Of a stretch of 64,000 nucleotides of DNA, positions 3,608 to 62,157 are shown in pieces. Source of the DNA: a virus. Lineage: Duplodnaviria > Heunggongvirae > Uroviricota > Caudoviricetes. The stretch is from IMG/VR virus record IMGVR_UViG_2541047873_000001. One strand, 5' to 3'. The first letter of the stretch is position 1; every line of letters starts with the position of its first letter. A program made the translations under genes and the position numbers. The notes beneath the pieces were generated by a model, which made no database searches, was not told the DNA's origin, and saw nothing but the letters and a program-made list of their open reading frames with translations.

Positions 3608-3625
3608 ATATTAATTTTCTAATAC
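3608..3625. promoter_or_regulatory. C1 operator-like site
   Basis: attaattttctaataca, one mismatch from the recurring 17-mer AAATTAATTTTCTAACA; sits ahead of the gene preceding pacA, as P1 Op88 sits ahead of lpa. Confidence 0.45.
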
Positions 3626-3701: not shown

Positions 3702-4094
3702 ATGGAGCAAATCAGTAGCGCCGAAATAGCGGATATCATGATCAGGGCTAACTGCTATCTGACGGTCACCGAAATCACCAGCCGTGCAAAAGCACAATAT
3801 CCTCACCTTCATGTGTCGCGCGTAAACGTAAATAACATCATACGTTTTTTTGTTCGTTCCAGTCGTGCCATTTGCGAAATAGACGACCGCGTATACCCCC
3901 GGAAATATTGGTTACATGGCCTGAATGGATACCAGTTCAAGGTGCGCGGGCGCACTCCTGAATTCGGTCGGCTGTTGGTGAAAAACACCAACCGAAAGAT
4001 AGAAGCTCAATTACGAAAGGAGCAGCGTCAGTTGGTGGCGATGACTAACCAGCTATGGAACGCCGCTGTGAAAAAACGTGAGGCTTCCCTATGA
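3702..4094 (+). CDS. Lpa-like late promoter activator candidate (by synteny)
   Basis: 130 aa basic protein directly upstream of pacA, preceded by an operator-like site; same arrangement as P1 lpa-pacA-pacB; no sequence-level identification. Confidence 0.35.
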   Translation: MEQISSAEIADIMIRANCYLTVTEITSRAKAQYPHLHVSRVNVNNIIRFFVRSSRAICEIDDRVYPRKYWLHGLNGYQFKVRGRTPEFGRLLVKNTNRKIEAQLRKEQRQLVAMTNQLWNAAVKKREASL

Positions 4095-18250: not shown

Positions 18251-19246
18251 TCAGTTATTGAACGTGATCACTCCGCGCTCGATGGCGAAGTCGAAAAGCT
18301 GGTTGGCGGCTACGTAAAGGCGTATGCCATGTGCTTTTTCCCATGCCCGGACATCGTTTTCTGCGCTTCTGGCGCATTCATCGCAAAGAGGAACGGCCCA
18401 GCGATCGTGTTCGTTTAACGAGCGGGCGCGGTACATGAACGGGTGATTAACTTTGCCTCCGCATCCGATGCACGGACGAGAAATCACAAACCGGAGATAA
18501 GCCGGGCTTTTACCGAGAACCGCTTTTGGTCGGCGCATATACAGCAGGCCGGAATCCTCATCTACAGACAGGTTGACGATCTGCTCTGCGGTTATGTCCA
18601 CCAGCTCACGGGTGCTGTGCTCCCAGGTGATATCCGATTCTTTCAGTGTGCCGGTAGGGATTTCCTGTTTTGGCTGACAAAATGCAATGCGACCGGCTTC
18701 ATCTGGCAGCTCGTCTTTCAGATTCCGGCGAATGGCCCAAAAAGTGAGTTCAACCATGCTCAGATCGCGTTCTGGCGGTAGTTTTAACTCGCTCGCAGCC
18801 CAGTTCATAACCCAGTTGGCACGATTCAGGGATAACTGGTCATCCAGCTTGCCGTACCCCTTCATCATGTATTCCGCATCATGCTTCCAGCACAGGCGAA
18901 CGGCAGAGCCGTTATAGAAATGAGTGGTTAGCTGGTGGCTGCAATCGCGCTTATCGTGCGCCTGGCAATCGTGGATATTGGAACTTACCCAATGAACAAG
19001 CGAATCTTCACCGCCTAATGCGTTAAATACGCGCTCGCTTTGAAAAAATGCTTTCAGAGACTGGTTGGCAACCAGCGAATAGTTCAGATCCACTACGCCA
19101 TCTGGCGTGTTTTCAGCCTGTTCGCGCGGAAGTGGAGAGATAATGAAACGGCGACCTGCGCCAATGTAGTTGCTGGTGGGCTTGTCTACCGGAAAGACAG
19201 CCACACCAGCTCCGTTTACGAAATGAGGTGTGATTATTGCACTCAT
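18251..19246 (-). CDS. DUF968 (YdfU-like) protein
   Basis: 331 aa; C-terminal Cys cluster RPCIGCGGKV...PLCDECA typical of lambdoid DUF968 proteins; first gene after an operator-like pair. Confidence 0.55.
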   Translation of the reverse strand: MSAIITPHFVNGAGVAVFPVDKPTSNYIGAGRRFIISPLPREQAENTPDGVVDLNYSLVANQSLKAFFQSERVFNALGGEDSLVHWVSSNIHDCQAHDKRDCSHQLTTHFYNGSAVRLCWKHDAEYMMKGYGKLDDQLSLNRANWVMNWAASELKLPPERDLSMVELTFWAIRRNLKDELPDEAGRIAFCQPKQEIPTGTLKESDITWEHSTRELVDITAEQIVNLSVDEDSGLLYMRRPKAVLGKSPAYLRFVISRPCIGCGGKVNHPFMYRARSLNEHDRWAVPLCDECARSAENDVRAWEKAHGIRLYVAANQLFDFAIERGVITFNN

Positions 19247-24987: not shown

Positions 24988-25592
24988 TTTTCTAACATTT
25001 TAAGTTGAATTATGAGATCCACCGTTGTACATTCACAACCGATTGGTACACCGGTCAACTTTTTGAGACAAACCGTTTGGTTTTTCGTATGATTGCCGCC
25101 GCCATACCAATGGCGGTGCAATATAGGTGGCTGAAAAGCCCCCGTTGACTCACGGTGTTCCAGCCTTTATTGCGCCGCCACCAGACCGTGGAACAGTCGA
25201 TGGCGGCTCCGAAAGCAAGGAGTCACTACACTATGAACAGCTACTGTCTTTTCCCATCACTCGTTGTCCGCCACTCACGCGATAATCTGCATTCTTTACT
25301 CGCGCTGGGGGTGTCAAAATGACCGTTCGCTACCTCAACTTTCAAATCCAGAACATCACTGGCGGTTGCTATGACTGGTTTGTCACTCTCGGAAAAGAAG
25401 TGATCACCGGGAAGCTGGATGAAGTGAAAGCTAAAGCAATGGCCTACGCCTGCAAGCAAGCCCAAAAGAAGAAAAGAAAAGCATAAGAAAACACACAGTT
25501 GCGCCCTGGCATTATCGTGGGGTATATTTCTACGGCACCTTAGAAAAACGGGTGCCGGGATTGGAACCCCGGATAATGCAAAAGGCGACACA

Positions 25593-25616
25593 GACGCCGA
25601 AAGCGTCTTTTTTTGT
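25593..25616 (+). terminator. rho-independent terminator
   Basis: gacgc-cgaaa-gcgtc hairpin followed by T7. Confidence 0.7.
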
Positions 25617-25639: not shown

Positions 25640-25790
25640 GTAGCGTTTAGCTCAGAGATCAATGGTAGTGCTGGCTGGGCTGCCGAAAGGCAGGCCGGTT
25701 CCCTTTTGCGCCGGTAGTTCCAACCCAGTCAGTGCTACCGCCATTGAGATTGGAACCTCACGCGGTAGCTCCTTAAATTAGCAAAAGGAG
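25640..25790 (+). ncRNA. c4-like structured regulatory RNA candidate
   Basis: No ORF; 16 bp stem (25664-25679 with 25724-25739) enclosing hairpins; repeated GGTAG/CTACC elements complementary to the region just ahead of the downstream RBS; position matches P1 c4. Confidence 0.35.
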
Positions 25791-27816: not shown

Positions 27817-28446
27817 TTAATTAGTACAATTCATTTTTGCAGCGACTTCGGCTACCCCACGATCAATGTAAGGCTGCTCACTTAATATCTTTTGGATCTC
27901 ACTACGAATGCATTCCGCTGTAGGTTGCTTAGGTGCTTGTTTTTGCTTCGCGGATCGTTCAAGTTCCATCATGTTATTGAATCCTGCCACATCACTTTGC
28001 CGAAGCATCCCTTTCCGGATAAGAAACTGCTGCCCTTCAGGCACCCAAGCCAGCATATACAAAGGCTGCAATAGATCTCCCATTCCTTGCTGACGATAAA
28101 GCTCAAACTGCAACACGCCGTTACTTAACACCGACATTGTGTCTTTGGTGGAATACCCTGTCTTTTGTATGGCTTTGCCTGTTTCATCTGCTGCATATGC
28201 AAATACACAGAACTCAATGTTGCTTTTAAAGAATGGCTCTACAGGTTTCAGCGGGATATTTTCTTTCTGGCAATAGTTTGAAACTTCATCAGGCGTATAG
28301 TTTGTTTTGGCGTTTCGCAACACCTTCAGCCCAGCCTCATACTTTGCAGGTAACGCGCCTGCATAGGCAGCATTAAGAGAAACTCCCCCCAATATAACCG
28401 CGAGCACTGCTCCCAAAACCCTTAACTTCACAAAACCATCCTTCAT
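27817..28446 (-). CDS. secreted hypothetical protein
   Basis: 209 aa from MKDGFVKLRVLGAVLAVILGGVSLNAAYA (signal peptide); track ORF extends further upstream. Confidence 0.5.
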   Translation of the reverse strand: MKDGFVKLRVLGAVLAVILGGVSLNAAYAGALPAKYEAGLKVLRNAKTNYTPDEVSNYCQKENIPLKPVEPFFKSNIEFCVFAYAADETGKAIQKTGYSTKDTMSVLSNGVLQFELYRQQGMGDLLQPLYMLAWVPEGQQFLIRKGMLRQSDVAGFNNMMELERSAKQKQAPKQPTAECIRSEIQKILSEQPYIDRGVAEVAAKMNCTN

Positions 28447-28711
28447 GTAAACAAACTGAAGTTTTATGTTACAAAAACAAACATCTACGCCAAAATGACT
28501 TAGGCCAAATTCAGCGCGAATAAAAAAATCAAAAAAATTGTTGACACTATTCTGGAAATCACAATCTGGACAAAATCCATTGCGCAAACGGCTCCCGTTG
28601 AAGGTTCTTTTGACGACTAACTTTCAGCCGATGCGCGGTAGGGAGTCATAACGCCAAAGCAGGCCGCCATGTGCGGCCTTTTTTTGTGCCTGCTATCGTG
28701 GAGTAAAAGCC

Positions 28712-29365
28712 ATGCAAAAGATCGCAATATTCAGTCTTTCTACTAACAAGCCGCTGATGGCTACGGCAGTCCTGAAAGACGGCGCGCTTGTAATTGACAA
28801 AGTAAAGCCGCTCCCTGCATCTGCTATTGAACAAAAACGAAAAATTCCACCAGCAATTGCCGAGCTGCGTAAAAGTGAATTTAAGGTGCTGGTTGACGAA
28901 ATCACGCCAACCATTTCAGCCGGTACAGGTGCCAGCCAGGTAACATTAAAAACACGGCACGCCGACGGCAGAGCAGCGATCATTGTCGGCATGGAGAGAT
29001 ACCGGGAGCTGAAACTACAAAGGCTGCTATCCCTGCCTGACAAGAACAAAGGGGCATTTGAGATCCCCGACTCTATCGTCGATACCGAATACAACGGCAA
29101 CGGTGAAGAGGTTTATCGAGTTAACTGGCAAGATATCCGACCAGAGCACATCCTGATGATTCTGTGCTGCTATGCAACGGTATACCACAATGTTGCCAGC
29201 GCGGATTACCTGAAACAAATGACAGGAGCGGTAGAGAAAGAAAACAAAGCAGGGATAATGGCCTCGTTCCTGTCCATTATCAGCGATCAAAAAGCTAAAG
29301 CAGGAAATACCCAACCAAAATCGCTGGCCGGGCAAGTAATTGATGAAGATACGGTGATACTTTAA
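28712..29365 (+). CDS. hypothetical protein
   Basis: 217 aa; preceded by TTGACA and TGGAAATCACAA motif. Confidence 0.5.
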   Translation: MQKIAIFSLSTNKPLMATAVLKDGALVIDKVKPLPASAIEQKRKIPPAIAELRKSEFKVLVDEITPTISAGTGASQVTLKTRHADGRAAIIVGMERYRELKLQRLLSLPDKNKGAFEIPDSIVDTEYNGNGEEVYRVNWQDIRPEHILMILCCYATVYHNVASADYLKQMTGAVEKENKAGIMASFLSIISDQKAKAGNTQPKSLAGQVIDEDTVIL

Positions 29366-29696
29366 TCAACTCAGTAGCTTTGTTAACTCCCTTAATACCA
29401 GGTAGAAGAGTAACAAAAATACTAACGCCAGTATTTGCGTGGTCAACGAGGCGTTCATAAACAGAACAATTAGCTTTAACAATTCGAGAATAACGTCCAT
29501 GTCATTCACACTATTTAATTTTTAATCTACAGCCAGCAAACAATGAAGCTGGCCCCCGCATAAAGATTAATGAAAGTCACTTGTCACCAGTGAGGGGATT
29601 TATGAACCACATCCCCCTGAACTGGTGGACTGTCTATTTCTCGCATTTCACACCCTGCATACAGTTCCCCCCAGGTTATGACTGTGAGGAACTGTT

Positions 29697-30026
29697 ATGA
29701 GTTACAGCAGGCTCGACGATCGATGCATTGAAGACGATGTGCTGCGCGCACTATTCCATCAGGAGATGATCAAGCGGGTATCGGAGTACCACTCCGATAA
29801 TTTCCAGTACACGATAAAAATTGATGAGGTTTATCGCTCAGACCTGGCGGCCTATCGCGCCTATGGCAACGCTGATTTGCGCTGGGTATTTCGCGTGCTG
29901 GTGGGCCATGAGTCAGAAATGGAAGAAATGCCGGTAGGGACAACGTTAACTCTTCCTGACGCAGCATGGCTAAGAAACAAGATTCGCGATTACGCTGGCT
30001 CGGCACCGGAGATAGAAAATGCCTGA
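29697..30026 (+). CDS. hypothetical protein
   Basis: 109 aa; stop overlaps next gene start. Confidence 0.45.
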   Translation: MSYSRLDDRCIEDDVLRALFHQEMIKRVSEYHSDNFQYTIKIDEVYRSDLAAYRAYGNADLRWVFRVLVGHESEMEEMPVGTTLTLPDAAWLRNKIRDYAGSAPEIENA

Positions 30027-31215
30027 CTTCCTGAAAAATCAGGACGGGCGATATATCACTGACGGCCTGTCCTCTAAGGATTTCACACGCGTATTTGAAC
30101 TCATCAGGAAAGAGCAAAACCGCAAACGCCGCCAGGCGCACAGGACACTCACGCCGGGCAGGCTTAGGAATAAATCAGCCGAAGACATTCTTAAGCTGGG
30201 GAAAAAGAAAGGCGGCACGTTCTTTACGCGTGACGATCTGAAAGGCTTCGAAAAGCTGCGAAGCAAAGCACGCGAAAAATACGACAGCAAGACGGCTGGC
30301 ATTACATACGCACAACTGGTAGCGTCCAGCCAGGCTATCGATATTAAGCGAGCAAATAACGCCGTAGACGACGGTTCTGGTATCAAAAGAGCTACGCCCG
30401 TATCTCTTCGTCACAATGTGATTAATATCCGCGTGGAAGCGTCCGATATATCCGTTCACCAGCACCACATTGTCCGGGTACGTTTTGAAGAATGGGATCA
30501 GATGGTCGATGACATCGCAGAAGACGATAAATCAGCCCTGAAAGTCACAAAATCACTGTGTGCCGGGCGAGTGTCTTTCGATTGTGACTGCGGTCGCCAT
30601 CAATACTGGTATCGCTACATCGCCACTGCGGGTAACTTTGCCCTGGCCCCGCCAAAAGAATACGCCTATCCAAAAGTTCGCAACCCTAAGCTGCAAGGCG
30701 TCGCCTGTAAACATGTGATCCACTCAATGACACGACTACAGTCTGCCAGTTGGCAGATGAGTATTGCTCGCGCCCTGCAAAAAGCTGCAACGCAAGTTGC
30801 CTTTGGTGACGATCGCCGCCGCACGACAAAACACTTCACAAAAGAAGACGAGAAGGCGTTCAATCGAAACCGTAGCAGCAAAACGAATGTTGAGGCAGCT
30901 AAACGTGAATGGAAGCTCTATCAGAAACGCCAGGCCGCTTTAAGCACAAAACTGGCAAAGGACAACGGCAAGATTGACAAGCTACGTGACCAGCTGACCA
31001 GGGCCAGAAAGTTGTCCGATGCACAGAAAAAACGGGCAGCAGCAAAAGAAGCAGCCTTGCAACGTGAGAAACAGAAAAACAAGGAGCTTCAGCAACGCCT
31101 TGCCGATCAATTCGCACTGAAGAAGCAAGCGTTCATTGATGCGCTGGTCATGACAGGAACGTCACCTGAGCAAGCTGAAAAAATGTTTATGGAGTATGTG
31201 AAGAAAGGTTCTTAA
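30019..31215 (+). CDS. SWIM-type zinc-finger protein with basic coiled-coil C-terminus
   Basis: 398 aa; CDCGRH...CKH (CxC..CxH) SWIM-like motif; Lys/Arg/Gln-rich coiled-coil C-terminal third. Confidence 0.5.
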   Translation: MPDFLKNQDGRYITDGLSSKDFTRVFELIRKEQNRKRRQAHRTLTPGRLRNKSAEDILKLGKKKGGTFFTRDDLKGFEKLRSKAREKYDSKTAGITYAQLVASSQAIDIKRANNAVDDGSGIKRATPVSLRHNVINIRVEASDISVHQHHIVRVRFEEWDQMVDDIAEDDKSALKVTKSLCAGRVSFDCDCGRHQYWYRYIATAGNFALAPPKEYAYPKVRNPKLQGVACKHVIHSMTRLQSASWQMSIARALQKAATQVAFGDDRRRTTKHFTKEDEKAFNRNRSSKTNVEAAKREWKLYQKRQAALSTKLAKDNGKIDKLRDQLTRARKLSDAQKKRAAAKEAALQREKQKNKELQQRLADQFALKKQAFIDALVMTGTSPEQAEKMFMEYVKKGS

Positions 31216-31223
31216 TTTACAAC

Positions 31224-31248
31224 AAAGGCGGTTATCCCGCCTTTTATA
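31224..31248. terminator. bidirectional hairpin terminator
   Basis: aaaggcgg-ttatc-ccgccttt flanked by T runs on both strands, between convergent genes. Confidence 0.6.
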
Positions 31249-31986
31249 TTACTTGTCCTTTGATGTCGATTGAGACTCATATATTGTCTCTACGTCATCT
31301 ATTAGTTTATTAATACCCCACAATCCAGTGTCTTTATAAAAATCGCTTTCTTCAATTGCTTTTAATAAATCGGCAAAATCTTCTTGGGTGGAAATTCTTT
31401 TCTTTTTTGCTTTATATACATCGACAATTACTTTTATGCCGTGATACAGAGCCAATCTGGCACTCTCAGTCTCTCTCTTCTTCTCTTCAATTGCAGACAA
31501 TAATTTATATTGATCTTCTGTTTGCTTTTCTAGACTTAAAAGCTTGCTCTCTTTTTGCTTCAAGTTGATCTGCAACTCTTTTATTCTTGCCCTCTCTTCT
31601 AAATCAAACTCATAGTCAATGTATCTAATTCTTGCATAGTTCCTGCCTGTTGCTTTTGATATATACATTGTTATATAAGGCATTACCACTGACGCAGTGG
31701 TTCCATATATAAATGGCATAACAAAATGAGCCACAAACGGAGATACAATGATGGGGCCAACATAAGGAAAGTGATATTTCTCACCAACCCATACTATAGA
31801 CAATGTTGTATATATATCGTACTTTGATTTAAATAATATAATAATATCCTGCCAGTTAACGACAAAGAAAGAAACCACAACATATGCAAACAACTTATTG
31901 AATAACTTGTCTCTTATGGCTTCTTCTATTGTGTTCCTGACTGTGACATTTTCATCTTTATTTTCTAATGATGAATCTTTGCTCAT
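31249..31986 (-). CDS. AT-rich membrane-anchored coiled-coil protein
   Basis: About 245 aa; roughly 33 percent GC versus about 50 percent flanks; hydrophobic helices in residues 30-110 then long coiled coil; immediately downstream of higA on the same strand. Confidence 0.6.
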   Translation of the reverse strand: MSKDSSLENKDENVTVRNTIEEAIRDKLFNKLFAYVVVSFFVVNWQDIIILFKSKYDIYTTLSIVWVGEKYHFPYVGPIIVSPFVAHFVMPFIYGTTASVVMPYITMYISKATGRNYARIRYIDYEFDLEERARIKELQINLKQKESKLLSLEKQTEDQYKLLSAIEEKKRETESARLALYHGIKVIVDVYKAKKKRISTQEDFADLLKAIEESDFYKDTGLWGINKLIDDVETIYESQSTSKDK

Positions 31987-32047
31987 ATAAAAATTCAAAC
32001 CTTCTTATCTTTATTTTTGGTGAAGGCGGTCTTCCAGACCGCCAAAC

Positions 32048-32407
32048 TCAAACACCAACCAGGCTTTCAAGAGGAATGCCAAACTGGGAATGTAAACGAC
32101 GAATCATAGGTAACGTCAAATTTCGCGTGCCATTAAGCACTTCGTAAACACGGTTTGACTTACCAATTGCCGGTTCCAGATCCTTCACTGTCAGCCCTTG
32201 CTGTTCCATACGAAACTTAATGGCTTCAATAGGTGATGGTGGCTCAATTGGGTAATGCTTTTTCTCGTACTCTTCGATGAGCAGGCACATTACTTCAAAG
32301 AAATCGCCTTCCGGTGTGTTCATTTCCGGTTCGTTATCGAACATCGGTTCGACCGCACGCAGTGCGGCCTCATAATCTTGTTCTGTACGGATAGGTTTAA
32401 TGTTCAT
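32048..32407 (-). CDS. higA: HigA-type antitoxin (HTH)
   Basis: 119 aa; C-terminal HTH GKSNRVYEVLNGTRNLTLPMIRRLHSQFGI resembles HigA. Confidence 0.75.
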   Translation of the reverse strand: MNIKPIRTEQDYEAALRAVEPMFDNEPEMNTPEGDFFEVMCLLIEEYEKKHYPIEPPSPIEAIKFRMEQQGLTVKDLEPAIGKSNRVYEVLNGTRNLTLPMIRRLHSQFGIPLESLVGV

Positions 32408-32410
32408 GAT

Positions 32411-32713
32411 TTACTCCAGTTCTATTGTATCCGCTTCAATGGCATCATATTCCTTATGTGTTCCAATAAACTTAACGAACATCCATCCTCGCTGATAAGC
32501 AATTGCGACAATTAACCTGTAATCATTTCCCTTAATATTAAACACCACGCGCCTGTTTTTAAGGATGCTGGCTGTCCGGTACTGTTCTTTGATCTCAGCC
32601 GGATTTTTCCAGTCAGCCTTTGTTGCTTCATCAACCCATGCCTTTAATGGCTGTTCTGCATCGGGATTCTTCGCCCAGAAATCCCTTAGTGTTTTTACCG
32701 AAATTATTTTCAT
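32411..32713 (-). CDS. higB: HigB-type toxin (RelE/ParE superfamily)
   Basis: About 100 aa from MKIISVK; FNIKGNDYRLIVAIAY...FIGTHKEYD matches the HigB pattern; toxin gene precedes antitoxin. Confidence 0.8.
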   Translation of the reverse strand: MKIISVKTLRDFWAKNPDAEQPLKAWVDEATKADWKNPAEIKEQYRTASILKNRRVVFNIKGNDYRLIVAIAYQRGWMFVKFIGTHKEYDAIEADTIELE

Positions 32714-32732
32714 CACAGATTCCTTCTCTCTG

Positions 32733-32779
32733 AAAGTATAGTAGTCCCAATATGGGACAATGTAAAGCACTTTAGTCCC
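32733..32779. promoter_or_regulatory. tandem palindromic operator candidates in higBA promoter
   Basis: agtcccaatatgggac and agtcccatgctgggat: two imperfect palindromes 31 bp apart just upstream of higB. Confidence 0.5.
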
Positions 32780-32857
32780 ATGCTGGGATATGAATTGAAA
32801 TCACAATCTCCAGACAATGCCCCTCGATACCAGATAAATCGACCTTTGAGGACGCTT

Positions 32858-33649
32858 ATGGGCCGTTTTGATGAATGGCTTGCTGATGATGCAAGCCTGA
32901 TGAGAAAGGGAACAGAACATGACAGCACGCAGAGAGAAGAGACAACGACGGTTGAAGCGAATGAAGGAAGCACAACGGAAAATGGGAATGTCAGTGCAGG
33001 GCCATTCAGTATTCTGGAAGAGCACGCCGCCACCCAATCTAATAGCCATGATAATTGGCCTGATAATGCTGGTGACTCTGTTACGGAAGTGATTGAACCT
33101 GACATCGCTCCCCTACCGGCATCGCTCGCTAACAGAGAACCAAACCAGCAGCTTAAAACCCGATATAACGGACACAAAGCGTTCAACGACCAGATCCGCG
33201 CCGATTGGATGCTCATTATTGAATCAAGCCCTGACGCATTCGAGGCGCTTTTATATCGCCCGGCTGATGGCACCTATGGCGTCGTAAACGATGAAACAGG
33301 TGAAGAGTCATTCACGCAACTGGACAACAACCAGCGTGAGCTTACCTATCTGGAACCGGAAATCGTATACGTCCTGGACAACCCGGACGGAAGGGATTCG
33401 TTTCATGCCATTGATGCCGATGGAGAACAGGATGGTCTTGCTGATGAAGTGCTAATCCTGCGTATTGCTGCAAACAACGTACCTGTTGGTTCAATCCTGG
33501 AATGGAACGAAGAAATGGCGAATGGCCTCGCCCGCCGCTGGTGGTACGTGCACCGAATCTTCAGCTACGGAACACAACACGTCGGCTCCCTTTATTACTG
33601 CATCCCGGCTAGGAACTTTGATACCACTCAAAACGGAGTGATCGAATGA
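32858..33649 (+). CDS. acidic hypothetical protein (possible baseplate or virion protein)
   Basis: About 263 aa from MGRFDEW, very acidic; first gene of an operon ending in a spike protein. Confidence 0.45.
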   Translation: MGRFDEWLADDASLMRKGTEHDSTQREETTTVEANEGSTTENGNVSAGPFSILEEHAATQSNSHDNWPDNAGDSVTEVIEPDIAPLPASLANREPNQQLKTRYNGHKAFNDQIRADWMLIIESSPDAFEALLYRPADGTYGVVNDETGEESFTQLDNNQRELTYLEPEIVYVLDNPDGRDSFHAIDADGEQDGLADEVLILRIAANNVPVGSILEWNEEMANGLARRWWYVHRIFSYGTQHVGSLYYCIPARNFDTTQNGVIE

Positions 33650-41480: not shown

Positions 41481-41536
41481 AATCTGAAGAGTGAAAATCA
41501 CAAAGTGGAGAAGATTTAAGAAAAAGGAGGTGTTAG

Positions 41537-41821
41537 ATGAGTGCAATAGCGACCAGTGACACAGTTTGTTCTGGTCATGGAGGATTCCCTCCGCGACCTG
41601 TAGCAGAAACAGTTTCCTGGTTTACCGTAAATGGAAAGCCAGTGGTTGTAGATGGGGGAGCGTTCCCCAGCCATACTGACGGAAATAGCGCGCACCCCGG
41701 ATCAGCCGTATCGACGCGCTCATGGTTTGCAATAGGCGGGAAAGGAGTTGTTTGTGTGGGAGATCCCCTTTCTTGTGGCTCAGTCATCGCCAATGGTGAG
41801 GCAATTTTTCAGGTGTCATAA
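41537..41821 (+). CDS. PAAR-domain protein
   Basis: 94 aa; Gly/His-rich with repeated (D/S)GG/GHG elements and conserved Cys typical of PAAR spike-tip proteins. Confidence 0.75.
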   Translation: MSAIATSDTVCSGHGGFPPRPVAETVSWFTVNGKPVVVDGGAFPSHTDGNSAHPGSAVSTRSWFAIGGKGVVCVGDPLSCGSVIANGEAIFQVS

Positions 41822-42615: not shown

Positions 42616-42686
42616 CCACACCATTTAAGCCCATAAATGGTTACAAATTGGTACACATATCACACCAACAAAAAAATCTGAAGAGG

Positions 42687-43145
42687 ATGGTTTTGAAAAA
42701 GATAATTTTGATAGTAGTTGCGCTTTTAGCCATTTATGGAATTTACCGTACTACGGCGGCAGTTATCGATCACATCAGGTATATCCGTTCCCTGGAAGAC
42801 TCAAAATCACAACTTGAAAGCGAGAACAACACGCTTTCTACCGCATTGCAGTTAAGTGAAAAGTCGCGATCTGCCATGATGGCTGAAAACGAAAGAATTA
42901 AAACACTGGAGAAGGAGTACCAGCGCAAAACAGCAGAACTGAATACCAGCCTGATCAAACAACGGGAGGAAAGCCAGAATGAAATCAATCGTCTTGAAAC
43001 TGCGTTACGCAATGCCGGGGTTAATGATGTGCGTGTGCCTGATGACGTTATCAGGATGCAGCGGGAACGGGCAAAAGAAATCAATCAGCGTGCCAATGCA
43101 AATTACCGTAGAAGCCACCAGCAAACCGCAGGGAAATCTGATTGA
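42687..43145 (+). CDS. i-spanin (Rz-like)
   Basis: N-terminal transmembrane helix then coiled-coil periplasmic domain; start chosen at MVLKK after RBS. Confidence 0.6.
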   Translation: MVLKKIILIVVALLAIYGIYRTTAAVIDHIRYIRSLEDSKSQLESENNTLSTALQLSEKSRSAMMAENERIKTLEKEYQRKTAELNTSLIKQREESQNEINRLETALRNAGVNDVRVPDDVIRMQRERAKEINQRANANYRRSHQQTAGKSD

Positions 43146-43302: not shown

Positions 43303-43485
43303 GGCTCCTGAAGCCAGATGTCCTGGCTGTCAGCTTCTTCGAAACCGTGACAGACGTTAAAGTCACTCAAGCGATACTGGCGCTGACGGCCTCTATTTCG
43401 CTCATGCCAATGCATATATCCACCAGCAAATTGAACCGCCCCGGGAATCCTGGAGACTAAACTTCCTGAGAAAGAGGTAAACAGG

Positions 43486-43812
43486 ATGACTAAAAATACT
43501 CGTTTTTCCCCCGAAGTCCGTCAACGGGCAGTCCGTATGGTTCTGGAAAGTCAGAGCGAATATGACTCACAATGGGCGACAATTTGTTCCATTGCTCCAA
43601 AGATTGGCTGTACGCCGGAGACTCTGCGTGTCTGGGTTCGCCAGCATGAGCGGGATACCGGGGGCGGTGATGGAGGGCTCACCACCGCTGAACGTCAGCG
43701 TCTGAAAGAGCTGGAACGTGAAAATCGTGAACTGCGCCGCAGTAACGATATCCTTCGCCAGGCTTCCGCTTATTTTGCGAAGGCGGAGTTCGACCGCCTC
43801 TGGAAAAAATGA
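43486..43812 (+). CDS. IS629 transposase OrfA
   Basis: 108 aa HTH/leucine-zipper protein, recognised as IS629 OrfA by eye. Confidence 0.9.
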
Positions 43813-44699
43813 TGCCACTGCTGGATAAGCTGCGTGAGCAGTACGGGGTCGGACCGCTATGCAGCGAACTGCATATTGCCCCGTCAACGTATTACCACTG
43901 TCAGCAACAGCGACATCATCCGGATAAACGCAGTGCCCGTGCGCAGCGCGATGACTGGCTGAAGAAAGAGATACAGCGCGTATACGATGAAAATCACAAG
44001 GTATACGGTGTGCGTAAAGTCTGGCGTCAGTTGTTACGGGAAGGTATCAGAGTGGCCAGATGCACTGTGGCACGTCTCATGGCGGTTATGGGACTTGCCG
44101 GTGTTCTCCGGGGTAAAAAGGTCCGTACGACCATCAGCCGGAAAGCCGTTGCCGCAGGCGACCGCGTAAACCGTCAGTTCGTGGCAGAACGACCTGACCA
44201 GCTGTGGGTGGCTGATTTTACTTACGTCAGCACATGGCGGGGCTTCGTCTATGTGGCGTTCATCATTGATGTGTTTGCCGGATACATCGTGGGGTGGCGG
44301 GTCTCATCGTCCATGGAAACGACATTCGTGCTGGATGCACTGGAGCAGGCGTTATGGGCCCGTCGACCGTCCGGCACGGTCCATCACAGTGATAAAGGTT
44401 CTCAGTATGTATCGCTGGCCTACACACAGCGGCTTAAGGAAGCCGGATTACTGGCATCAACAGGAAGTACAGGCGACTCGTATGACAACGCGATGGCGGA
44501 GAGCATCAATGGTCTTTACAAAGCGGAGGTAATACACCGTAAGAGCTGGAAAAACCGTGCAGAAGTGGAACTGGCCACACTCACGTGGGTGGACTGGTAT
44601 AACAATCGACGATTGCTGGAAAGGCTGGGCCATACTCCTCCGGCAGAAGCAGAAAAAGCTTATTATGCTTCCATCGGAAACGATGATCTGGCAGCCTGA
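43809..44699 (+). CDS. IS629 transposase OrfB (DDE catalytic domain)
   Basis: 296 aa in the -1 frame relative to orfA, overlap at the A-rich aaaaaatg region consistent with programmed frameshifting. Confidence 0.9.
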
Positions 44700-45081
44700 G
44701 TTCACAGATAAAACACTCTCCAGGAAACCCGGGGCGGTTCAAATGCCAGCGGACAATCGCTATAGTCGATGTAGCCAATACCATTACCCAAACGCGCTTC
44801 GCGCGCCCCGGCTTTCCAGGACAGCAGAAAAGAGTCACGATCTGCCAGCATGACTACAAAATCATCTGGATCGCCTATGCAGTGAAGAATGCCTGCCTTG
44901 CATAACTGTTTGAGTGCCTTGGACTGACTCAGGATGTCTTCACCGTAATACTGAAAACAATCATCAACAATAGCGGGATAGCCAGCGGGTGGATTCAGGC
45001 TGGTTGGTATAGCTGACGCGATAGCCAGCATTAAACGATATTGTGTTTTCGATGGGTTCGCGTGACTCATGTTTCCTCTAC

Positions 45082-45554: not shown

Positions 45555-45633
45555 CTATTGACTAAATAACAAAGTGAGTATTGTCACCTCGTCAAAAGAA
45601 TCTTCACGCCGCGCCCGAATTTAGGGTTTAACC

Positions 45634-53053: not shown

Positions 53054-53809
53054 TTAAGACTGCTGATAGGTGAATTTTATTTTTGTAACTCTGCCACCTT
53101 CTGTAACCTCTGAGAAAACTATTTTCATTTTTGTGTTTTTTTCGATTTCAGCTACAGCTTTTGCCAGAAAGCTTCTCTTAAATTCGGCGTACCGTTGATA
53201 GCTTTTGGGAAGACCATAACGCTCCCGCATCCATTCAACGCCAAGTATAGCGAAGCCGCTCCCATCATCCTTTCTATACTGGCATAAGGACTCATAAAGC
53301 CGCATAGAATAAGGGTTTGTCAGGCGAGACACTTCAGTAAAATTCAGCCTCGTGAACCTCTTATCAAGCAGAGTAAAAAACGGCATGAGATATGGATTCA
53401 GATGAATAATGTAAGTCCCCCGGCGTGGTGAGTAAGCCTCCTTAATCATCCAGGGATAAGACTCATAACTGTCTTCTGATTCGGTTGATTCATCAGGGTT
53501 ATATATCGTGACTTTCTTCTCACTAAGTCCGGAGATAGCTTTACGAATATCCTTGCTGGCTTCAGCAGAGGGCAAATTATACATCTCTGCATATTCGTTG
53601 ACCGTCAACTCACAGGCACCTGAACCAAGAACGCCATCCTTAGAAGCATAGCGAAGTCTTCCCACCACAATAAACAACAGTCGCTTTTGGTCGCGTGTCA
53701 GGTGATAAGCCGCCTCTGTGATCTCATTGGCCTGCGCCAAGCTACGGCTAATTGGTGTCGCTGATTCAATCAGACTGACGGCTTTTGCCGTTAATTCCGC
53801 TCTGTTCAT
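53054..53809 (-). CDS. repA: replication initiator RepA (iteron-binding)
   Basis: About 251 aa from MNRAEL; flanked on both sides by iterons as in the P1 R replicon. Confidence 0.75.
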   Translation of the reverse strand: MNRAELTAKAVSLIESATPISRSLAQANEITEAAYHLTRDQKRLLFIVVGRLRYASKDGVLGSGACELTVNEYAEMYNLPSAEASKDIRKAISGLSEKKVTIYNPDESTESEDSYESYPWMIKEAYSPRRGTYIIHLNPYLMPFFTLLDKRFTRLNFTEVSRLTNPYSMRLYESLCQYRKDDGSGFAILGVEWMRERYGLPKSYQRYAEFKRSFLAKAVAEIEKNTKMKIVFSEVTEGGRVTKIKFTYQQS

Positions 53810-53832
53810 AACCCTGTGTGATCCTTCAAATG

Positions 53833-53952
53833 GTGAGGGCAATTTTTACATCACTTTGAGGGCAATTACTACACCTTTTGAGGGCAAATCTTACACCTGC
53901 TGAGGGCAAATCTTACACCTCAATAGCTTAATTGAGGGCAAATCTTACACCT
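53833..53952. repeat. origin iterons (incC-like), five direct repeats
   Basis: Five copies of TGAGGGCAA(A/T)T(C/T)TTACACC at about 22-23 bp spacing immediately upstream of repA. Confidence 0.8.
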
Positions 53953-54038
53953 TGGTCCTCTACAAGCCCCGCCACCCCTGGCCTCCGTGATGCCTAAAAA
54001 GGATCTAAAAAGGATTAAAAAGAGAAAAAGGTTTATAA

Positions 54039-54047: not shown

Positions 54048-54195
54048 GTGGATATGTGAATTGCGTCACTTAAGGTGTAAAAATCACCCTCAATAGTTGC
54101 TGTTCGATCGACAAAGATCCTTATTCAATACTCCCACAAATCACACACTCCCTATCCTCTGAAAAACTAACTGAACCTAGCTTTCGGAGGAATCC

Positions 54196-55071: not shown

Positions 55072-58000
55072 GTGGCGGGCACTCCATATGGAAAAAGCAC
55101 TGGAAGAGAAATACAAAGCCCACGCCAAAAAAACAGGGTGATCACCGCCGATGTAAGTGAGGTTATTTTGAACGATAAAAAAGACCGAATAGCGATAATC
55201 GACGCAATACAAACGGCAAACGCGAAAGAGCTAGCTGCGCTTTCAGAAATAAAAAAAGCACTTGAGTCTTACGGACGCAATCCTGATACCAGCGACGCAC
55301 CACAAGGACGCGTAAGTCGTCGCCTGGCCCGAACAGGGAAAGCAGGGGCGCAACGCAACAGTTTCACACAGGGGCCGTATAAAGACCGGCTCCCTACCAG
55401 GAAACAGAGATTACGTATAAACAACACTAGCGAGATAGATAATCCGCAAAAAGCAGCAGCAGATCACCGCACCGCTCATTCGGAATCAAAAACAGCACCG
55501 CTGGCTGAAGGCAAAGCCACGAAGTCATCACCTGAGCGCATTCAATCGCTCACTCCTGACATTCAGCCTGCAAGGCAAGAACAACCAGTTAGAGAAAACC
55601 AGAGCATCGCTGGTGCACCGTTACGGGATAGCAACGGACGATTTGCCTCTCAGAAAAAAAACGAGGATCTCGCACGCCAGAATGAGCTACGCGCACAGGC
55701 AAAACTACAGGTTGGGTTCCTGCGAAAACTCGGTTCCATTATGGGGGTTGATGGTTCAGGGAAAGCCGACGATGGAGCTGTAACCGATGCTGCCGGGGTA
55801 GGGGCTGGTGGTCCACTATGGATGGCAGCACGGGGCGTATTTGATATCAGCCGCGAGATTACTGGTAAGGCTAAATCATTGAAAGAATGGATAGATAATG
55901 GCAACGACAAGGCGGCTGGCGCACCGGTGGTCGCAAAAGCCCCCGCCATTACTTACCCGGCACCTGACAATGAAAGGAAGACTCCAGATAACGCGCCCGG
56001 TTCAGCAAAGGCATTTACTGAAGCCGTTAAAGAAAAATCTGTGCGTGCGATCGAAGAACAAACGAAAGTTCTTCAACGCAACGACAGCCAGATAATTGAT
56101 GAGCTGGAAACTGTATCCGAAGAGATCCGGAAGCTAAGAAAGTCCCAGGAGAGTGGGCTAAAACTGAGCGACCTCCTCGGCGGTGGCAGATTACGTACCA
56201 AAATATCCCCTACACGCGGTCGTAGCAGTGCACGTGGTGGCAACACGGGCCGCACTGGAGACAGTAAAGAAAACAAGGGCAAGAAGGGAAAAAACACCAG
56301 CAAACCTACTGAGACGGGCAGGAGTCAGGAAGGCAAAGAGGGGAAAAAAAATCAGCCAGGCAAAAACAACAGTGCGGGCGAGGAAAAAAATCGGACAAAA
56401 AATGCTGGTGGGAACGAGGGTAGTACCTCACCAAAATCATCGGGTGATAAATCTTCAGTTAAAACCAGAGCAGGTAAGGTCACTGAAGAAAGTGTAGCCA
56501 AAACGGCGACTGGTGGAGCGGCAGGGAAAGACGCTGGTAAAGCGGCAACTTCCGCTGGGGAAAGCCTTACCAGGAAAGAGGCGGGTAAGGTTGCCGTTGC
56601 CACTGGTGAAAACATCGCGAAAAAAGAAGCTGGAAAAGTGGCTCTCAAAGCTGCCGGAGGTGTTGCCGCAAGGGCCGGATTCAGGGCGATTCCAGTCATC
56701 GGCCAGGTGGCTATGGTTGGTTATGATGCCGTAGACGGCTACAGCGACACAGAAGCGCAGAGGGCGACTTATAACCTGAAGGAAGGGCAGGACGTTACAA
56801 CACAGCAAAAGAGCGCCTACGCCGCTGCTAACGTCCTGGATATGGGCGGTCTGGTGACGGGAGCGGCTAACCTCATTGGCGAGGGGATGTCCGCGCTAGG
56901 CTTTGAAGGTGTCGGACAAAAACTTCAGAGTCTTGATACCAGCAATATCGCTCGCGGCATAAATAGTTCTATCGACGCGTCGAAGAACGCATTCAGCAGC
57001 CTAAAAGAATCGTTCTCATCAAGCAGCGAAGGCACTGCGCAGGTTAAGAAAGCCGTTGAAGATGGCACCAAGCAAACGGTAGCCGCAATTAATGATCTGG
57101 CCCGACAGCTACAGGGCGGGCGCAGAGGTGAGGATGGCGTGGGTGAACACGGCTACAAATCGCCAGACGAATTTAAAGCGCCTGAAAAAAATACAATAAC
57201 GGCTGATCTGAATATAGGCGGAAGCAACGCCAAGAACAGGAATTACCGGAATAACAACCTGGGGAACCTGGTTTTTGCAAATCAGGAGGGGGCGGTACTG
57301 GAAGCGCCGAACGCGAAAGGCGAACAGCGTTTTGCGCGGTTTAATACGCCCGAAGAAGGGATTCGGGCATTGGCAAACCAGGTATCGAGTTATTACAACG
57401 GTACAAGTGCTGCCGCCGGGTATCAGAAGCTGCAAACAGTATCCAGCATCATTTCAAAATGGGCACCACCAACAGAGAACAACACCAATCAGTACATTGA
57501 AAACGTCAGCAAATATCTCGGGGTATCCCCCAACGATAAAATAGACGTTAGCAACCCTGAAGTTATGACGCACCTTGTTCGCGCCATTGCGACGAAGGAG
57601 GGGGGTAACCCGGCGGTTAACAACAATTTCATCAAAACAGCTCTTGGTTCATTCAACGCTAAAACTGGGCGTTGGGAAGGGCAATTCAATGATGAAACGC
57701 TGGAACACATTAATAAAATCCAGAAGGAAAAGGGCGGTCCTCTAATCGCTCGCAACTCCCAATATAGTGTCGGTAGCAAAGTCAAATACGCCAACGGCTC
57801 ATCTTCTGCTATTCCTGCGTCAAGCGTAGCCCAGGCTGTAATGCCTAGCCCTACTGACGTGGTTCAACACGCACAGGCAGCTAAAAAACCGAAGGCAGCT
57901 CAACAGGAAAATGCCCAAGCGATCAGCCACGCGAAAGCTAGTGGCAATTCTTCCGCCGCAGCCGGATTGACGGAGCGGTTAATGAGTGCAGACGGTGTTG

Positions 58001-61594: not shown

Positions 61595-61710
61595 CAAACC
61601 AGGCCCCGCCAACCTGGGTGGGGCCATTTCTCAAAACAAAAGACCACTGGAAATCACAAACTGAACATACTGCCCTTCGATTTATTGCTTGTTAAAGGGG
61701 CTATGTTCGT

Positions 61711-62157
61711 ATGGCTGAAACTTTAAAATCCCAAAGCGATTCCAGTATTTACAAGGCGCAACTCCTTTCTTACTACTACTCTCGCCGTGCAGAGTCTGCA
61801 ATCGGCAGAGGTGAGCGTTTTGTTATGACAAAGGCTTATTGGTGCAAGTCCGATCTTGTGACGGTAAATAGTGCTGGTGGCTGGACTATTTCTGATATTC
61901 CGCTCGACTTCAAGTTAAGTGATGCACAGCATTTTGCTGAATCCAATCTCATTCTTTCCAGCCTCGATGGTGTCATTACGATTAATGCCGCTTTTCCACA
62001 AGAAACGATGCCGGACGATACACCTTACGATTTCAATACGCTGGTTCTCGTAGATGCAGAGGATCAGGCTTTTGGGGTTGTTTGTACTCAACAGGACACC
62101 TTATTCAAAGGTAAGCGATACAGCTTGCTCATGACCATTGAACAGGTCGAGGGATAA
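61711..62157 (+). CDS. hypothetical tail protein
   Basis: 148 aa; preceded by TGGAAATCACAA motif. Confidence 0.45.
   Translation: MAETLKSQSDSSIYKAQLLSYYYSRRAESAIGRGERFVMTKAYWCKSDLVTVNSAGGWTISDIPLDFKLSDAQHFAESNLILSSLDGVITINAAFPQETMPDDTPYDFNTLVLVDAEDQAFGVVCTQQDTLFKGKRYSLLMTIEQVEG

Follow-up and report, generated by a model that had tools for sequence, protein, structure and literature searches.

Late promoters of the kind considered here are well known from phage P1. Their mechanism, with the phage activator Lpa, the host protein SspA and late timing, has been described (PMC10695390, PMC1891329). P1 Lpa is a sequence-specific DNA-binding protein, which is thought to act via polymerase-bound SspA of the host (PMC1891329). 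In the GenBank record of P1, 11 late promoters are annotated (LPmat, LPpro, LPlyz, LPdar, LPs, LPsit, LP23, LP26, LPpmgL, LPhot and LPpac). Ten of the 11 consist of a 9-bp "-22 region" followed by 4 nucleotides and a -10 hexamer; in LPhot, the gap is 9 nucleotides. When extracted from the record, the promoters read (r)AC-AAGTGACTT-N4-TAnnAT.

Middle promoters of phage T4, which combine a MotA box at -30 with a -10 element and are served by MotA and AsiA, resemble this arrangement in that they are sigma-70 promoters with a -10 but with the box of a phage activator instead of the -35 element, and in that a polymerase-bound co-factor is needed. However, the comparison is an analogy only: the proteins are unrelated, the boxes differ in sequence and position, and Lpa and SspA are not known to work by sigma appropriation, as AsiA does. 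Small phage activators that switch on several late operons via a conserved upstream site are also found in Mu (C) and P2/P4 (Ogr/Delta), but their sites lie farther upstream (about -30 to -55) and are dyad-symmetric, and these proteins are unrelated as well. A DNA-bound activator that contacts a polymerase-associated SspA-family protein is exemplified by PigR of Francisella, which works with MglA-SspA in a model built on the precedent of P1 Lpa (PMC1891329). This precedent, like that of E. coli SspA as a co-activator, is relevant here only if the Lpa of D6-like elements keeps the SspA dependence of P1 Lpa.

The DNA analysed in this work (the window) is the 64,000-nucleotide stretch of the IMG/VR record IMGVR_UViG_2541047873_000001, in which a recurrent motif had been predicted to be a candidate late-promoter or activator-binding element, possibly one for the Lpa-like protein.

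Identity and gene map of the element

By its sequence, the element in the window is a D6-like member of the P1-family phage-plasmids. An 8-kb stretch around the copy of the motif at gene 7 has 82% identity to Escherichia phage D6 with 81% of its length covered, and 98.6% identity to the E. coli plasmid NZ_LR890273. When all D6 proteins were used in a tblastn search, almost the whole window could be mapped onto D6, with the orientation reversed. A total of 123 plasmid records match one 8-kb stretch of the window, and D6-like phage-plasmids are often found in E. coli, Salmonella and Shigella from clinical and animal sources.

The homologue of lpa (3702-4094, + strand) is followed by pacA and pacB. 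The c1 gene is on the - strand, as is a block of early and accessory genes, and cre is also present in the window. The + strand carries mat (start 28712), genes 26-25 (start 29697), genes 7-24-6-5 (ATG at 32858), upfC-upfB (ATG at 41537), the operon running from the homologue of the P1 capsid gene 23 through tub (start 45634), pmgB-sit-pmgA-bplA-16 (start 54196) and the tail-fibre operon R-S (ATG at 61711).

Several other features were noted in passing. Four tRNA genes lie within 1158-2183. An isrK-like RNA (25535-25613) and a C4 antisense RNA (25658-25745) upstream of icd and an antirepressor gene make up an immI-like region. An IS3-family insertion sequence at about 43400-44700, between the homologues of orf54 and orf53, is missing from D6; it has overlapping ORFs (43486-43812 and 43809-44699) and an ALIL frameshift pseudoknot at 43767-43883 (120 bits).

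Recurrence of the box in the window

The original prediction listed four copies of the motif upstream of four operons. All four are real, with each string present exactly once in the window. Their coordinates hold for three copies (32795-32811, 41491-41508 and 61647-61663), and the first copy is displaced by one base (28552-28569, not 28551-28568). The motif named in the heading of the prediction, TGGAAATCACAA, is exact at just two copies (28553 and 61648). The distance to the start codon had been given as 35-150 bp and was found to be 157, 61, 43 and 61 nucleotides, counted from the motif start, which is close to that range. The number of operons was too low: the window has seven such putative promoters, since three degenerate copies had been missed. 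These are CATTTCACACcctgcaTACAGT before gene 26 (29644), TAAATAACAAagtgagTATTGT before the capsid gene (45563) and CAAATCACACactcccTATCCT before pmgB (54137), and they were found by inspecting the 5' regions of the other late operons on the + strand and by using a relaxed pattern.

The recurrence exceeds what is expected by chance. For the 9-mer AAATCACAA, 8 copies were counted (7 on the + strand, 1 on the - strand), against an expectation of 0.96, and this count was reached in none of 300 dinucleotide shuffles. The same holds for the composite pattern WWT[C/A]ACAM-6 nt-NANNNT, which has 10 matches on the + strand and none on the - strand, where 2.5 would be expected (0 of 300 dinucleotide shuffles). 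A looser test, in which GAAATCACAA was allowed up to one mismatch, gave 13 matches against 6.65 expected; it was equalled by one of 100 shuffles and is marginal when taken alone. When the window was scored with a matrix derived from six sites of D6 only, the five highest scores (21-26 bits) fell on the sites of R, capsid, upfC, mat and gene 7. On shuffled sequences, the best score of this matrix averaged 11 bits, and one shuffle hit 23.

Some matches were rejected upon inspection. The exact copy at 18480 lies antisense within the pdcB homologue with GATAAG in place of a proper -10 and is best read as a chance occurrence. Likewise, the copies at 42803, 43990 and 49810 are matches in coding sequence without a proper -10, and the match at 57250 was rejected as lying inside sit. 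A near-match at 3771, inside lpa, is due to conserved E-I-T codons and has no T at -7. The composite match at 42656, before orf55, was dropped because it is not conserved in the D6 lineage; it appears to be chance.

Architecture of the putative late promoters

All seven sites are intergenic and on the + strand, and have the same layout: the box, 6 nucleotides and a -10-like hexamer of the form NANNNT, which ends 21-135 nucleotides before the start codon. The putative promoter of mat (28555-28576) has the box GAAATCACAA at 28555-28564, the spacer tctgga and the -10 CAAAAT at 28571-28576. In the putative promoter of genes 26-25 (29644-29665), the degenerate box CATTTCACAC is followed by cctgca and TACAGT, with 31 nucleotides left to the start codon. 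The box GAAATCACAA is found again in the putative promoters of genes 7-24-6-5 (32797-32818; spacer tctcca, -10 GACAAT) and of R-S (61650-61671; spacer actgaa, -10 CATACT), both of which end 39 nucleotides before the ATG. At upfC-upfB (41494-41515), the box is AAAATCACAA, the spacer agtgga and the -10 GAAGAT, at a distance of 21 nucleotides from the ATG. The two remaining putative promoters, those of capsid gene 23 (45563-45584) and of pmgB-sit-pmgA-bplA-16 (54137-54158), consist of TAAATAACAA, agtgag and TATTGT, and of CAAATCACAC, actccc and TATCCT, respectively.

To describe the conserved block, sites from the window, D6 and an Enterobacter plasmid were combined in a matrix of 25 sites, which are orthologous across three lineages and thus do not amount to 25 independent observations. 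In this matrix, a block of 12 bp from -27 to -16 is conserved, with the core AWWTCACAMwCT; the leading G/TGG that had been part of the predicted motif is not conserved. The T and the A-C-A of the box, as well as A-11 and T-7, are fixed in the matrix by the search pattern with which the sites were collected. The pattern demanded A-11 and T-7 of the three added sites only; the four original sites had been found without this requirement, and in all of them the 6-nucleotide gap leads to a hexamer whose second and sixth bases are A and T, respectively. Some of the -10 hexamers are very weak (e.g. GAAGAT and CATACT).

A recognisable -35 element is lacking from the 25-site matrix, in which no position from -35 to -31 exceeds 0.33 bits and -30 has no more than 0.5 bits. 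Different relatives have unrelated DNA in the -35 region of the gene 7 and pmgB sites. A scan of 28400-33000 with the sigma-70 consensus called none of the three sites in that stretch.

The mat transcript would have a leader of about 135 nucleotides (28577-28711), the high conservation of which extends to the lineage where Lpa has 54% identity. Close to the start codon of mat, the leader finishes with a strong hairpin that resembles a terminator and has a T-run (28661-28679, AGGCCGCcatgtGCGGCCT TTTTTTG). The arrangement is alike in a Serratia relative, and the leader has no match in Rfam. The hairpin suggests that mat may be under attenuation or antitermination control.

Comparison with the late promoters of P1

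The sites share several properties with the late promoters of P1. In both cases there is a homologous activator gene (PF25716), and an upstream box takes the place of the -35 element and is combined with a -10 hexamer. The target operons are also alike in kind and number, and orthologous ones include mat, 26, 23, R/S, lydA and prt. Sites in the window precede the orthologues of mat, 26, 23 and R/S, the P1 counterparts of which carry the Lpa-dependent promoters LPmat, LP26, LP23 and LPs; the capsid site occupies the position of LP23 and the R-S site that of LPs. If the P1 box is read on the other strand, it becomes AAGTCACTT (AAATCACTT in LPlyz) and matches AAATCACAA at 6-7 of 9 positions.

There are also clear differences. 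The box reads AAATCACAA(a)CT in the window but (r)ACAAGTGACTT in P1, where it is a 9-bp inverted repeat centred near -22, whereas the box of the window is asymmetric and not palindromic. The spacer to the -10 has 6 nucleotides in the window and 4 in 10 of the 11 P1 promoters, and the -10 hexamers of the window are weaker than those of P1 (TAnAAT). Lpa itself is only about 30-34% identical, with a predicted recognition helix unlike that of P1. Finally, the window has extra putative promoters before gene 7 and pmgB but no box before pacA. We searched the seven sites for the P1 box and did not find it; the sole P1-type box in the window is at 29574-29582 on the - strand. As a control, the D6-type pattern was searched in P1, where it gave 8 matches scattered over both strands, none of them at an annotated late promoter. 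Since the box is unlike that of P1 and lies 2 bp farther from the -10, the biochemistry of P1 can be transferred by analogy only.

No promoters are annotated in the GenBank record of D6, and text searches of the literature returned no description of the D6-type box or of D6 late promoters, although an earlier publication is still possible. Elements of this kind are familiar from P1, from which the present ones stand apart by the sequence of the box, its asymmetry and the length of the spacer, together with a strongly diverged Lpa.

Conservation in related elements

Absence of the box from the late promoters of close relatives would argue against a promoter element, and the relatives were checked for it. 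D6, about 50 IMG/VR loci and the Enterobacter plasmid all have the box. A search of D6 (91 kb) with the relaxed composite pattern gave 11 matches, 9 of which are on the coding strand and precede a late gene by 44-156 nucleotides (ddrB, lydA, R, pmgB, 23, upfC, 7, 26 and mat). The plasmid with 98.6% identity has four more sites in the part beyond the window, before lydA, ddrB, prt and darB, which gives 11 candidate late promoters for the whole element (7 in the window), the number that is also found in P1. In the Enterobacter plasmid, the Lpa of which is 54% identical, the box, the 6-nucleotide spacer and the -10 are kept before nine late operons (capsid, 7, 26, mat, darB, prt, lydA, R and pmgB). 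A box of this kind is also found in the IMG/VR contig 3300009011_000012, where Lpa is likewise 54% identical.

At individual sites, the box is kept next to sequences that are not. The mat box is conserved in D6, about 25 IMG/VR loci, locus L029 and the Enterobacter plasmid. At gene 7, at least five unrelated upstream sequences among 28 IMG/VR loci abut (G/A/C)AAATCACAAtctcc(a/c)GA(C/A)AAT, and the homology between the loci sets in with the first A of the box. Homology also starts at the box at pmgB, where relatives have three unrelated upstream contexts. Before gene 26, the site is kept across lineages, and the different upstream sequence that is common to loci L030, L032 and L024 diverges from the window about 7 nucleotides ahead of the box. 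The D6 lineage has GAAATAACAAagtgatGACAAT at the place equivalent to the upfC site, with AAATNACAAAGTG kept between strongly diverged flanks, and relatives carry TAAATCACAAagtaggTATTGT at the capsid site. At R, the box and the -10 are the longest identical stretch in the g16-R spacer when compared to D6; conservation of this promoter was judged from D6 and the Enterobacter plasmid, because a scan of viral contigs with the R protein gave near-identical loci only. A box that is kept while its 5' flanks are replaced is the pattern to be expected if the box must travel with the operon.

Two of the putative promoters have no counterpart in P1, those of gene 7 and pmgB, because the respective operons are split by cassettes and each downstream fragment has a box of its own. 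The insertion between genes 25 and 7 in this lineage is a toxin-antitoxin cassette, and the one between tub and pmgB is a repA-like gene with iterons. Operons that run without a break in P1 (26-25-7-24-6-5 and pmgC-tub-pmgB-sit) would therefore tolerate the insertion of cassettes here.

The cassette between genes 25 and 7 (31249-32770, - strand) has two ORFs of 119 amino acids, at least one of which is HigA-like, and one of 249 amino acids. It is a variable spot, with at least five different sequences in relatives that all end at the gene 7 box. By the 5' end of the repA-like gene (53057-53809, - strand), a direct repeat of roughly 20 bp (TGAGGGCAAATCTTACACC-like) is present five times (53830-53960), and the copies look like replication iterons.

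Another relative, a Serratia plasmid, encodes an Lpa-like protein with about 35% identity. It has the P1-like arrangement AACTCACTT-4-TAACAT before a putative capsid gene, and no D6-type box was detected in the half of the plasmid that was examined.

The Lpa homologue

The presumed activator is a protein of 130 amino acids (3702-4094, + strand) that matches the Pfam family PF25716 (BPP1_LPA) with an E value of 2.5e-50 over 128 of the 131 profile positions. It has 82% identity to the Lpa of D6, and 34% (BLASTP) or 29% (multiple alignment) to that of P1. An AlphaFold model, computed with 8 sequences, had a mean pLDDT of 76 and values above 85 over most of residues 10-70. In the model, three helices and a beta hairpin form an N-terminal winged-helix-like domain, which is followed by a long C-terminal helix. 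A fold search of the PDB with this model gave winged-helix matches (Fur, PerR, MecI and forkhead proteins), all of them weak (best E value 9e-3), so that we take the winged-helix fold of Lpa as suggestive.

Helix 3 (residues 40-52), the predicted recognition helix, is mostly invariant within the D6 group and differs from that of P1 nearly throughout. This divergence matches the difference between the boxes and would fit a changed DNA specificity of Lpa.

The stop codon of lpa overlaps the start codon of pacA (ATGA, 4091-4094). No late-promoter box is found ahead of pacA or pacB, whereas in P1 the gap between lpa and pacA is occupied by LPpac. From the overlap and the missing box, it appears that the packaging genes are probably co-transcribed with lpa in this lineage.

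Interpretation and alternative explanations

The proposed role as a late promoter or activator-binding element is supported on sequence grounds by the fixed distance of 6 nucleotides to the -10, the missing -35, the position before late operons and the conservation of the box next to replaced flanks. We consider it likely that the repeated AAATCACAA is the upstream activator box of Lpa-dependent late promoters in a D6-like phage-plasmid, of the P1 kind but with a changed box. The observations behind this reading are a recurrence beyond chance, a fixed geometry, the strand and position before late operons, conservation against the flanks and the presence of the activator gene. Binding of Lpa to the box, a need for SspA and the positions of the transcription starts are what we infer by analogy with P1. 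A promoter would thus consist of the asymmetric 12-bp box (about -27 to -16) and a weak sigma-70 -10 element (NANNNT) located 6 nucleotides after AAATCACAA, without a -35. When the C1 repressor is lifted, the Lpa homologue would be made, and its winged-helix domain would bind the box, which is placed where the polymerase would otherwise need a -35 contact. Lpa, probably together with host SspA, would then recruit or activate E-sigma70, and the virion, lysis and anti-restriction operons would be switched on (eleven for the element as a whole, of which the window has seven). Transcription is predicted to start about 7 nucleotides after each -10.

It is unlikely, in our estimate, that the sites are late promoters whose box is read by another phage factor or a modified RNA polymerase while Lpa acts elsewhere. 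In favour of such a reader, the box is asymmetric, unlike the palindromic P1 Lpa site, and the P1-type box that is retained in D6-like elements could be the true target of the Lpa of the window. However, all of D6 has only one P1-type composite upstream of a gene, as compared to nine late operons preceded by the D6-type box; the gene map contains no other homologue of a late regulator; and the type of box tracks the type of Lpa across P1, the D6 group and the Enterobacter lineage. Host proteins might also be considered as readers, as the CRP half-site is TGTGA/TCACA and the IHF-like site WATCAA: the box contains the half-site core TCACA, and its AATCAC resembles the start of the IHF consensus. 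Yet each copy has one TCACA, with no second CRP half-site at 6-nucleotide spacing in any copy, and the box is centred near -22 and overlaps the spacer, which is neither a class I nor a class II position (dyad TGTGA-N6-TCACA at -41.5 and -61.5). The motif is furthermore restricted to late operons and never found on the strand of the early genes. The related idea that the box is part of ordinary promoters that need no activator has to contend with the missing -35 and the weak -10 hexamers, from which unaided initiation by sigma-70 should be poor. We thus regard a host-protein site or an activator-independent promoter as very unlikely.

The onset of homology among relatives, which coincides with the box or slightly precedes it at gene 7, pmgB and gene 26, would also be expected if the box were mainly a recombination junction, i.e. 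a short conserved linker for the exchange of modules between phage-plasmids without a direct role in transcription. Such a role would leave unexplained the fixed distance to the -10, the single orientation and the restriction to the 5' ends of late operons, and there is no module boundary at the conserved boxes of mat, 23 and R. Any function as a junction could simply follow from the box being a promoter that is kept with its operon, and we give the linker as a primary explanation very little credence, slightly less than a host-protein site. Mere chance in AT-rich intergenic DNA could be argued from the loose 10-mer test, which is only about 2-fold over expectation, and from the copies at 18480 and 42656, which do look like chance. 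It is effectively refuted by the shuffles, none of 300 of which reached the counts of the 9-mer or the composite, by the ranking obtained with the D6 matrix and by the conservation across lineages.

If the boxes are indeed Lpa-dependent late promoters, the rule AWWTCACAMwCT-about 3 nt-NANNNT would locate all late transcription units of D6-like phage-plasmids. The Lpa family would have changed both its DNA specificity and the geometry of its promoters between the P1 and D6 lineages, which would make P1 and D6 a natural pair for studying DNA recognition by an activator that replaces the -35. The rule would be of use for annotating and engineering D6-like elements; it opens no new biological question.

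Putative promoters of the other type in D6-like elements and in P1

One perfect P1-type late promoter, gacAAGTGACTTtcatTAATCT, is found in the window at 29564-29582 (- strand), between mat and gene 26 and pointing away from gene 26. It faces an ORF for a hydrophobic protein of 44 amino acids (29369-29500, - strand; MDVILELLKLIVLFMNASLTTQILALVFLLLFYLVLRELTKLLS), which is a homologue of D6 orf77. D6 and most of the D6-like IMG/VR loci have kept this promoter; it is absent from L030, L032 and L024, where the DNA is different, and from L029 and the Enterobacter lineage. Its survival counts against a firm assignment of the D6-type box to the Lpa of the window. Conversely, P1 (L001, AF234172) has one perfect D6-type site, tggAAATCACAAagtacaTACCGT, at 31571-31591 (- strand). 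The -10 of this site ends 38 nucleotides before the start of lydC, a holin paralogue, and no promoter is annotated there.

These sequences raise the improbable but conceivable idea that the P1 supergroup has two Lpa-box specificities (AAGTGACTT with a 4-nucleotide spacer and AAATCACAAaCT with a 6-nucleotide spacer), where each lineage keeps one promoter of the other type before a small membrane or lysis gene, with possible cross-talk. If these promoters were functional, they might allow a phage-plasmid to detect the late activator of a heterologous relative, whether co-resident or superinfecting, and to answer it with a membrane-active protein. Such a response, if true, would amount to cross-talk or exclusion between phage-plasmids. 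Alternatively, the promoters of the other type might be mere relics of module exchange at the boxes.

A second recurrent motif

We also considered whether the box could be the operator of the C1 repressor, which is about 17 bp long, asymmetric and located at early and immunity promoters. This was rejected, as the AAATCACAA box is never found before lpa or near ref and cre. A second recurrent motif, ATTAATTTTCTAAT/C, has 6 occurrences in the window against 0.54 expected, a number that was reached in none of 100 shuffles. It is found at 3610, 9447, 24338 (- strand), 24983, 31956 and 45540, with copies ahead of lpa, behind cre, flanking ref and a short way upstream of the putative capsid promoter. 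ATTAATTTTCTAAT/C is a better candidate for the C1 operator of this lineage than the AAATCACAA box.
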